A DNA stretch of 64,000 bases from positions 343,175 through 407,174 of the forward strand of contig CP129478.1 in the NCBI GenBank assembly GCA_030583845.1. The letters are read 5' to 3'. This DNA comes from Candidatus Dojkabacteria bacterium. Its GTDB lineage: Bacteria > Patescibacteriota > Dojkabacteria > SC72 > JAHDCA01. Positions 31,606-33,178 of this stretch are shown piece by piece (the first letter of the stretch is position 1; the number at the start of each line of letters is the position of its first letter). The position numbers and the translations under genes are program-made. Below the pieces are notes generated by a model. The model was given only the letters and a program-made list of their open reading frames with translations. It was not told the origin of the DNA and ran no database searches.

Positions 31606-33178
31606 AGAAAGGAGGTAATTCAGCCGCAGATTCCCCTACGGCTACCTTGTTACGACTTTACCCCAGTCACAAGCATTACCCTCGTAGCCCCATATAAATA
31701 TGAGACCCCTTCAGGTATTACCTGCTTCCATGGCATGACGGGCGGTGTGTGCAAGACCCGAGAACGTATTCACCGCAGCATGGCTGATCTACGATTACTA
31801 GCGAATCCAACTTCATGAGGTCGAGTTGCAGACCTCAATCCGAACTGAGACCGGTTTTTTAGGATTAGCTCCACCTTGCGGTTTGGCTTCCCGTTGTACC
31901 GGCCATTGTAGCGCGTGTGTCGCCCAAGATATAAAGGCCATAAGGACCAGACGTCATCCCCACCTTCCTCAACGTTTTACCGCTGCAGTTTCCCAAGACA
32001 CTTGTAACATGGGATAGGGGTTGCGCTCGTTTCGGGACTTAACCCTACATCTCACGACACGAGCTGACGACGGCCATGCAGCACCTGTACTTGATCCAGC
32101 CGAACTGACTCCAGTCTTTCGATAGGATACGATCAGTATGTCAAATCTTGGTAAGGTTCTTCGATTGCCATCGAATTAAACCACGCGCTCCTCCGCTTGT
32201 GCGGGTCCCCGCCAATTCATTTATGTTTTAGCCTTGCGGCCGTACTCCACAGGCGGGATGCTTATCGCGTTAGCTGCGCCACTCAGCACTTCCGTCTATG
32301 TTCCGAAGAATATAAACAGTCATGCCAAACAGCTAGCATCCAGAGTTTACAGCGTGGACTACACGGGTATCTAATCCGTTTTGCTACCCACGCTTTCGAG
32401 CCTTAGCGTCAGAACAGAGCCAGTGAATCGCCTTCGCCTCTGGTGTTCCTCCCGATATCAACGTATTTCACCACTCCACCGGGAATTCCATTCACCCCTC
32501 TCTGTCTCAATCCTAGCAGTTTCCAATGCACTTCCGAAGTTAAGCTTCGGTCTTTAACAAAAGACTTGCTAAGACGCCTACGCATCTCTATACGCCCAGT
32601 AATTCCGGATAACGTTCGCACCCTACGCATCACCGATGCTTCTGGCACGTAGTTAGCAGGTGCTTATTCATGTGGTACCGTCATTTATTCGTCCCACATA
32701 AAAGGAGTTTACAATCCTAAGACCGTCGTCCTCCACGCGGCGTCGCTGCGTCAGGGTTGCCCCCATTGCGCAAGATTCCTAATTGCTGCCTCCCGTAGGA
32801 GTATGGGCCGTGTCTCAGTCCCATTGTGGCTGTTCGCGCTCTCACGCCAGCTACCCGTCTTAGCCTTGGTGAGCTATTACCTCACCAACTAGCTGATAGG
32901 ACGCAGGCCCCTCCCGAAGCGCCGGAGCTTTACCCAGTCCGCTAACTTATAGTGTCGACGACACTATAAGTTAGCGGACTGGGACTATCGGATATTACCA
33001 CTCCTTTCGAAGAGCTATTTCCGACTTCGGGGCAGGTTACCTACGCGTTACTCACCCGTTTGCCACTGTCACAAAGAGTTTCTTTGGCCGAAGCCTCCGA
33101 AACAAAGTGACCGTTCGACTTGCATACCTTAGGCACGCCGCCAACGTTCATCCTGAGCCATGATCAAACTCTCATTGA
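31606..33178 (-). rRNA. rrs: 16S ribosomal RNA (about 1.57 kb)
   Basis: 5' end: RC of 33150-33172 is AGAGTTTGATCATGGCTCAGG. 3' end: RC of 31606-31660 is AAGTCGTAACAAGGTAGCCGTAGGGGAATCTGCGGCTGAATTACCTCCTTTCT. The internal 806R-site GGACTACACGGGTATCTAATCC is present (32356-32377). The 530-loop region is divergent, and a 22-bp perfect hairpin is embedded at 32933-32983. Confidence 0.9.
32933..32983 (-). repeat. Family-1 palindromic repeat inside the 16S rRNA gene (V2 region): 22-bp perfect stem, 7-nt loop
   Basis: cccagtccgctaacttatagtg-tcgacga-cactataagttagcggactggg. It shares the exact 16-nt core ccgctaacttatagtg (and its complement) with the intergenic hairpins at 21847 and 27375. Confidence 0.85.

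Follow-up and report, generated by a model that had tools for sequence, protein, structure and literature searches.

A 16S rRNA gene from a Candidatus Dojkabacteria (WS6) genome with a 530 loop that appears to have been rebuilt by paired substitutions

Powers and Noller reportedly engineered, in 1991, compensatory mutants of the E. coli 16S rRNA pseudoknot 505-507/524-526, and in these mutants function needs Watson-Crick pairing and not base identity. In E. coli and M. tuberculosis, mutations at 523-526 and 912-915 and loss of m7G527 confer streptomycin resistance; each clinical allele (rrs 530-loop, 912-region and gidB/rsmG loss) is a lone change, with no compensating one, to a ribosome that is canonical in other respects. 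In TM7/Saccharibacteria, a CPR lineage, a near-invariant position of the streptomycin site is changed throughout the lineage, and this is said to be the C-to-U substitution at position 912 described by Hugenholtz et al. in 2001. A link between streptomycin resistance and an atypical 16S substitution has been drawn for TM7 (PMC4262358). The gene rsmG is present in fewer than 10% of CPR genomes versus more than 90% of other bacteria across more than 30,000 surveyed genomes (PMC12641178), and Nelson and Stegen, who also quote the link of gidB to streptomycin resistance, speculated that changes in the 530 loop might make gidB dispensable in Parcubacteria, which they could not test (PMC4508563). 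For WS6, now Candidatus Dojkabacteria, the published record concerns primers: the 515 site is reached in WS6 and OP11 only if three mismatches are allowed, and in WS6 the 3' end of 341F is mismatched too (Klindworth et al., PMC3592464). Coverage of Dojkabacteria by 515F/806R is 0%, with all SILVA Dojkabacteria mismatching the pair, and the modified primer 515F_Mod (GTGYCAGMAGBNKCGGTVA) is degenerate at exactly 522, 525, 526, 527 and 532 (Hu et al., PMC10943839).

Here, we describe the rRNA operon found in the window, which is the whole 64-kb stretch of DNA that was analysed. The operon is complete, in the order 16S, tRNA-Ile, tRNA-Ala, 23S and 5S, and consists of the following features:

33567..33595, minus strand, promoter-like site upstream of the 16S (TTGTGA-17-TATAAT, extended -10 TG)
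33357..33382, minus strand, 5' arm of the pre-16S processing stem (26 nt)
31608..33179, minus strand, 16S rRNA gene (1572 nt; Rfam RF00177, 1438.7 bits)
31510..31535, minus strand, 3' arm of the pre-16S processing stem
31365..31439, minus strand, tRNA-Ile(GAT) in the 16S-23S spacer
31240..31313, minus strand, tRNA-Ala(TGC) in the 16S-23S spacer
27850..31003, minus strand, 23S rRNA gene (3154 nt; Rfam RF02541, 2446.2 bits)
27436..27552, minus strand, 5S rRNA gene (Rfam RF00001, 89.5 bits)
27375..27417, minus strand, terminator-like hairpin at the end of the operon after the 5S (20 bp, T-run)

The 16S gene matches model positions 1-1533 of 1533, far above the threshold of 50 bits, and is not truncated. 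The arms of the processing stem flank it, are 96% complementary and are of the usual precursor type. Promoter-like sites are no more numerous in the region than in shuffled sequence, which makes the one at 33567-33595 weak evidence. No second rRNA operon was found within the 64-kb window. Neighbouring genes are housekeeping genes (UvrA, ComEC, LeuRS, Rho, RadA, Clp ATPase, S1, Nth, ATP-dependent ligase, PolA, FtsH, EF-P, S20, LepA, RecF, IscS/IscU, SHMT and FolD), and nothing in the gene content of the 64 kb is at odds with CPR membership. An indel map against E. coli shows a 131-nt insertion in the 23S after E. coli position ~270 (about 30595-30726 in the window) and five further expansions of 8-29 nt. 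Insertion of an intron or homing endonuclease, common in CPR rRNA, was considered and ruled out, because the insertions in the 16S and 23S are short helix expansions without ORFs; Rfam likewise shows no intron. Elsewhere in the window, ARAGORN detected a tRNA-Ile with anticodon TAT (UAU) at 44716-44791, besides tRNA-Ile(GAT) and two CAT tRNAs; a UAU isoleucine tRNA would offer an alternative to lysidine-based decoding of AUA.

For numbering, the 16S was aligned with E. coli rrsB (L001) and with the RF00177 consensus of Rfam; this places the regions of interest as follows:

32618..32663, minus strand, helix 18 / 530 loop, E. coli 500-545 (U505, A513, A522, A526, U527, G532, G535, U538)
32627..32648, minus strand, 515-536 site (reads GTGCCAGAAGCATCGGTGATGC)
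32209..32250, minus strand, helix 27 / 907 region (G885·U912, U886-A911, G887-C910, G923)
31751, minus strand, C1393, the partner of G923 (A-U changed to G-C)

A sequence-only reading of this DNA had claimed, within 32591-32670, a divergent 530 loop with five substitutions, one of them at the position of m7G527. Both references agree on exactly five in 515-536, inside that interval: C522A (32641), C526A (32637), G527U (32636), A532G (32631) and A535G (32628). Beyond the primer site there are also G505U (32658) and the pair C513A/G538U. Conserved (upper-case) positions of the Rfam consensus are changed at 31 of 681 over the whole gene and at 5 of 21 within 515-536 (Fisher one-sided p = 0.0017), so the local excess is real. 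The stretches 515-521 (with C518 and C519) and 528-531 (with G529, G530 and U531) are untouched, the stretches holding C1054, G926, the 790 loop, 1400-1408 and 1492/1493 (A1492/A1493) are identical to E. coli, and the anti-Shine-Dalgarno CCUCC is intact; the decoding-site and anti-Shine-Dalgarno stretches agree with the Rfam consensus as well. The 907 region, which the same reading placed at about 32211-32232, is divergent as it said, but the site lies at 32229-32209, reads AAAACATAAATGAATTGGCGG and differs by three substitutions (U911A, C912U and A923G) with no insertion.

For pairing, the Rfam consensus structure was parsed against the window 16S sequence. Canonical pairs are formed at 419 of 447 modelled pairs, several of the exceptions being non-canonical in the consensus too, and wherever a highly conserved paired position is substituted, a standard pair remains (13/13). 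Both bases differ in five modelled pairs (36-548, 54-357, 522-527, 588-651 and 1162-1174), and three pairs have turned G·U (885-912, 1057-1203 and 1047-1210). The pseudoknot pair 505-526 is not representable in a covariance model. Within the 530 loop, both sides are swapped in G505-C526 (to U-A), C522-G527 (to A-U) and C513-G538 (to A-U); A923-U1393 has become G-C, and at the end of helix 27 G886·U911 has become U-A and G885-C912 has become G·U. Whether compensatory changes preserve helix 18 was a point raised in the sequence-only reading, and they do: among 35 distinct sequences, 99% of helix 18 cells are paired and 10 of 17 pairs have changed on both sides, values reached by 0 of 500 shuffles, with slid controls only 21-45% paired. 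The outer stems 500-504/541-545 and 511-515/536-540 show rich covariation among relatives.

Relatives were collected by looking for exact copies of the 17-mer GTGCCAGAAGCATCGGT (515-531) in GTDB genomes, one for each species, which yielded at least 120 loci; at least 69 of these are 16S genes, and the remainder are chance matches in unrelated genomes. The comparison set thus consists only of WS6-type 16S genes that carry the 17-mer, and the invariance of 522, 526 and 527 (515-531) within it is by construction, because the 17-mer was the bait. Taxon names are those of the depositors' titles, mostly Candidatus Dojkabacteria or candidate division WS6, with some loci titled Saccharibacteria, Berkelbacteria, Doudnabacteria, Gribaldobacteria or Patescibacteria. 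Among the matches listed, the window 16S is ~72-86% identical to 37 full-length relatives, the top genome reaching 85.7%, and the best matches are Dojkabacteria/WS6 MAGs at 83-86% identity. A neighbour-joining tree of the 17-mer carriers places the window within a clade of GW2011 WS6 genomes and HGW-Dojkabacteria-1 (including L108, L073 and L111). WS6/Dojkabacteria 16S genes (for example those of GW2011_GWC2_36_7, GW2011_GWE2_33_157 and HGW-Dojkabacteria-1) share with the window the same 505-531 with U505-A526 and A522-U527, as well as G357A, G923-C1393 and a full-length match to members of the clade. The CPR-like affiliation proposed from sequence is therefore upheld by the titles of the motif carriers and by the tree, and its term 'deep-branching' need mean only membership of Patescibacteria/CPR, with changes that are typical of the lineage and not exceptional.

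Outside the search pattern, U505 pairs with A526 in 66 of the 67 relatives listed, and the 513-538 pair is A-U in 60 of them and G·U in 7. G532 (40/67) and G535 (33/67) among the same relatives are derived, marking sub-clades to which the window belongs. The exception to U505-A526 among the 67 listed is L116 (CAYGBM010000016.1), where G505 faces A526, a pseudoknot mismatch, and the outer stem is rearranged. Two public MAG bins, CALFHW01 and CALBLZ01, one labelled 'uncultured bacterium' and the other 'Berkelbacteria', hold three different WS6-type 16S contigs each (L004, L023, L032, L042, L062 and L121), and several 'Saccharibacteria' MAGs also carry a WS6-type 16S, which suggests mixed bins or wrong taxon labels.

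Substitution of near-invariant positions is what a decaying rRNA pseudogene or divergent spare copy would show, with a canonical (GTGCCAGCAGCCGCGGTAA) operon doing the work elsewhere in a genome of which the window covers 64 kb. However, pairing survives every substitution at a conserved paired position, six pairs having both bases exchanged, and the gene has a full-length Rfam match, an intact operon and a processing stem. The same variant is also kept in relatives just 68-86% identical over matched 16S stretches, which requires purifying selection, and all SILVA Dojkabacteria mismatch the 515F/806R pair (PMC10943839). With neither truncation, nor broken conserved pairs, nor lost operon partners, nor a lack of conservation among relatives found, we regard a pseudogene as very improbable. 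A pseudogene with a canonical second operon was also named in the sequence-only reading as a finding that would undo it; clade-wide conservation and complete compensation of the base pairs speak against it indirectly. The gene is, with high confidence, a functional 16S of an uncultivated WS6 bacterium (Candidatus Dojkabacteria, Patescibacteria/CPR) in which the scaffold of the 530 loop was rebuilt by paired substitutions. On this reading, the swaps G505-C526 to U-A, C522-G527 to A-U and C513-G538 to A-U in the WS6 lineage keep the geometry of the helix-18 pseudoknot and leave 515-521 and 528-531 alone, and the sub-lineage of the window adds A532G, A535G and the compensated helix 27 change given above.

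That last change is rare. Three standard pairs are kept at 885-887/910-912 in 55 of 55 WS6-type sequences, and the combination G885·U912 / U886-A911 / G887-C910, which sets the window apart from other WS6/Dojkabacteria, occurs in 3 of the 55. A metagenome scan for the helix 27 variant recovered two contigs that belong to other organisms: L122, at 88% identity to the window, and L123, at 85% and on a 557-kb contig. Both have the same bases at 886, 911 and 912 and a 530 loop identical to that of the window; the variant is thus inherited and not an error. Relatives remain distant, with identity of the window at most 85.7% to retrieved genomes and 88% to a metagenome fragment.

The assembly does have indel problems: compared with an independent Logan assembly it has one extra nucleotide at about 35091, which splits the DNA ligase gene, and polA lies in three ORFs. 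On these grounds the variant bases of the 16S might be taken for assembly or sequencing errors, or the 16S for a chimera. Yet the 16S differs by substitutions and not by indels, dozens of independent assemblies have exactly this 530 loop, the rare 911/912/886 combination recurs in two independent metagenome contigs, and Logan contig L126 agrees with the window throughout the first 381 nt of the gene. The same clade is matched along the whole gene, so that the 16S is not a chimera. Misassembly, named in the sequence-only reading as a finding that would undo it, is contradicted by the independent assemblies that carry the same variants, and we consider error or chimerism extremely improbable as the source of these bases.

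L126, which comes from a different run, agrees with the window along 2428 nt, the part of the 16S just given among them, apart from one C at about 35091 that is missing from the contig. The extra base, either an insertion in the window assembly or a difference between strains, splits the ATP-dependent DNA ligase gene (34609-36473) into two ORFs and explains why no record was found for the 421-aa ligase ORF. The assembly is therefore not error-free, with indel errors or variants outside the 16S. DNA polymerase I (36557-39309) lies in three overlapping ORFs (a 485-aa 5'-3' exonuclease part, a piece of 111 aa and a 371-aa DNA_pol_A domain), which implies two frameshifts within about 300 nt. These could be assembly indels, or the gene could be a real pseudogene or split gene; the PolA split is probably the same kind of problem as the ligase indel.

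The 16S of the window also differs from all fetched loci in an extension of helix 10:

32933..32983, minus strand, perfect 25-bp palindrome extending 16S helix 10

Its arms (CCGCTAACTTATAGTG / CACTATAAGTTAGCGG) occur in three copies in the window, at 32933-32983, 27375-27417 and 21851-21887, two of which are terminator-like hairpins with T-runs, after the 5S and after the S1 gene. A search with a 24-mer of the palindrome found only its own two arms, and the repeat family was revealed by a 15-mer core. The palindrome is in 0 of 124 fetched loci and not in L123, the nearest relative read directly, and it is present in the independent contig L126. By these searches, the family is specific to this genome. 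The helix 10 duplex is a putative RNase III substrate, which could lead to IVS-like excision or a fragmented 16S.

Primer sites were compared with the window 16S. The sites of 27F and 806R, said to be intact in the sequence-only reading, have 0 mismatches each. Against 515F there are 4 mismatches (primer positions 8, 12, 13 and 18), and G357A makes the 3'-terminal base of 341F a mismatch. The expectation that this organism would be missed by 515F-based amplicon surveys accordingly holds, in agreement with published work (PMC3592464; PMC10943839), and 515F_Mod has 0 mismatches. Primer mismatch in WS6 is thus already published, and the window carries a known signature that is ordinary for its lineage.

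Since base 527 is U, and since RsmG is missing from more than 90% of CPR genomes in the literature, m7G527 would be impossible here, and we infer that this ribosome cannot carry it. No match to the GidB/RsmG Pfam domain was found among the 48 ORFs of the window, which covers 64 kb of the genome. Positions 526, 527 and 912, which lie in or beside the streptomycin pocket, are the same nucleotides (or bear the same modification) that are affected in streptomycin-resistance alleles, so that the pocket is presumably altered at 526/527 and 912. Unlike the clinical alleles, the window pairs are compensated. Like TM7/Saccharibacteria, the window belongs to a CPR lineage with a change at a near-invariant streptomycin-site position, and it too has U912; in TM7 that change is lineage-wide, whereas in Dojkabacteria U912 is sporadic (8/55 WS6-type sequences) and the clade-wide signature is in the 530 loop. 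Reduced streptomycin sensitivity of a ribosome of this type is plausible.

Selection for intrinsic aminoglycoside (streptomycin) resistance could have fixed these changes, instead of neutral compensated drift after RsmG loss. The changed bases at 526, 527 and 912 fall in or beside the pocket, where resistance sites (523-526, 912-915 and m7G527) are known, and U912 arose several times in the clade. Streptomycin contacts 526/527 mainly via the backbone, however, so that a compensated swap may leave its binding unchanged, which counts against selection. In its favour, a comparable TM7 16S substitution is tied to resistance (PMC4262358); against it, the swaps 36-548, 54-357, 588-651 and 1162-1174 lie outside the cited resistance regions, which suggests generally relaxed or fast rRNA evolution. 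We therefore hold selection by streptomycin to be unlikely. Somewhat less doubtful, and offered only tentatively, is a sequence of events in which RsmG loss in CPR freed G527 and Dojkabacteria (and probably Microgenomates) flipped C522-G527 and G505-C526, which would give a ribosome without m7G527, with a remodelled streptomycin pocket and with intrinsically lower sensitivity to streptomycin-class aminoglycosides, to which a sub-lineage would have added U912. Loss of rsmG is not tied to the G527 substitution of Dojkabacteria in PMC12641178, PMC10943839, PMC3592464 or PMC4508563, and a literature search on the 530 loop in CPR returned nothing relevant.

Compared with the engineered E. coli pseudoknot mutants, the WS6 clade is a natural U505-A526 version, fixed across a class-level lineage and accompanied by the 522-527 swap that removes the m7G527 site. 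This locus leaves current understanding unchanged: it extends a known pattern to one more divergent lineage, whose 16S was no more than 88% identical to any sequence retrieved. The organism and its whole class escape V4 (515F) and V3-V4 (341F) surveys, and 515F_Mod catches this organism. The pairs 505-526 and 522-527, among the most conserved of the decoding region, are, as this natural example shows, constrained as pairs and not as bases, and the remaining interest lies in the loss of the m7G527 site in a phylum mostly without RsmG: this otherwise universal site can, it would seem, be lost outright in a lineage lacking the enzyme.
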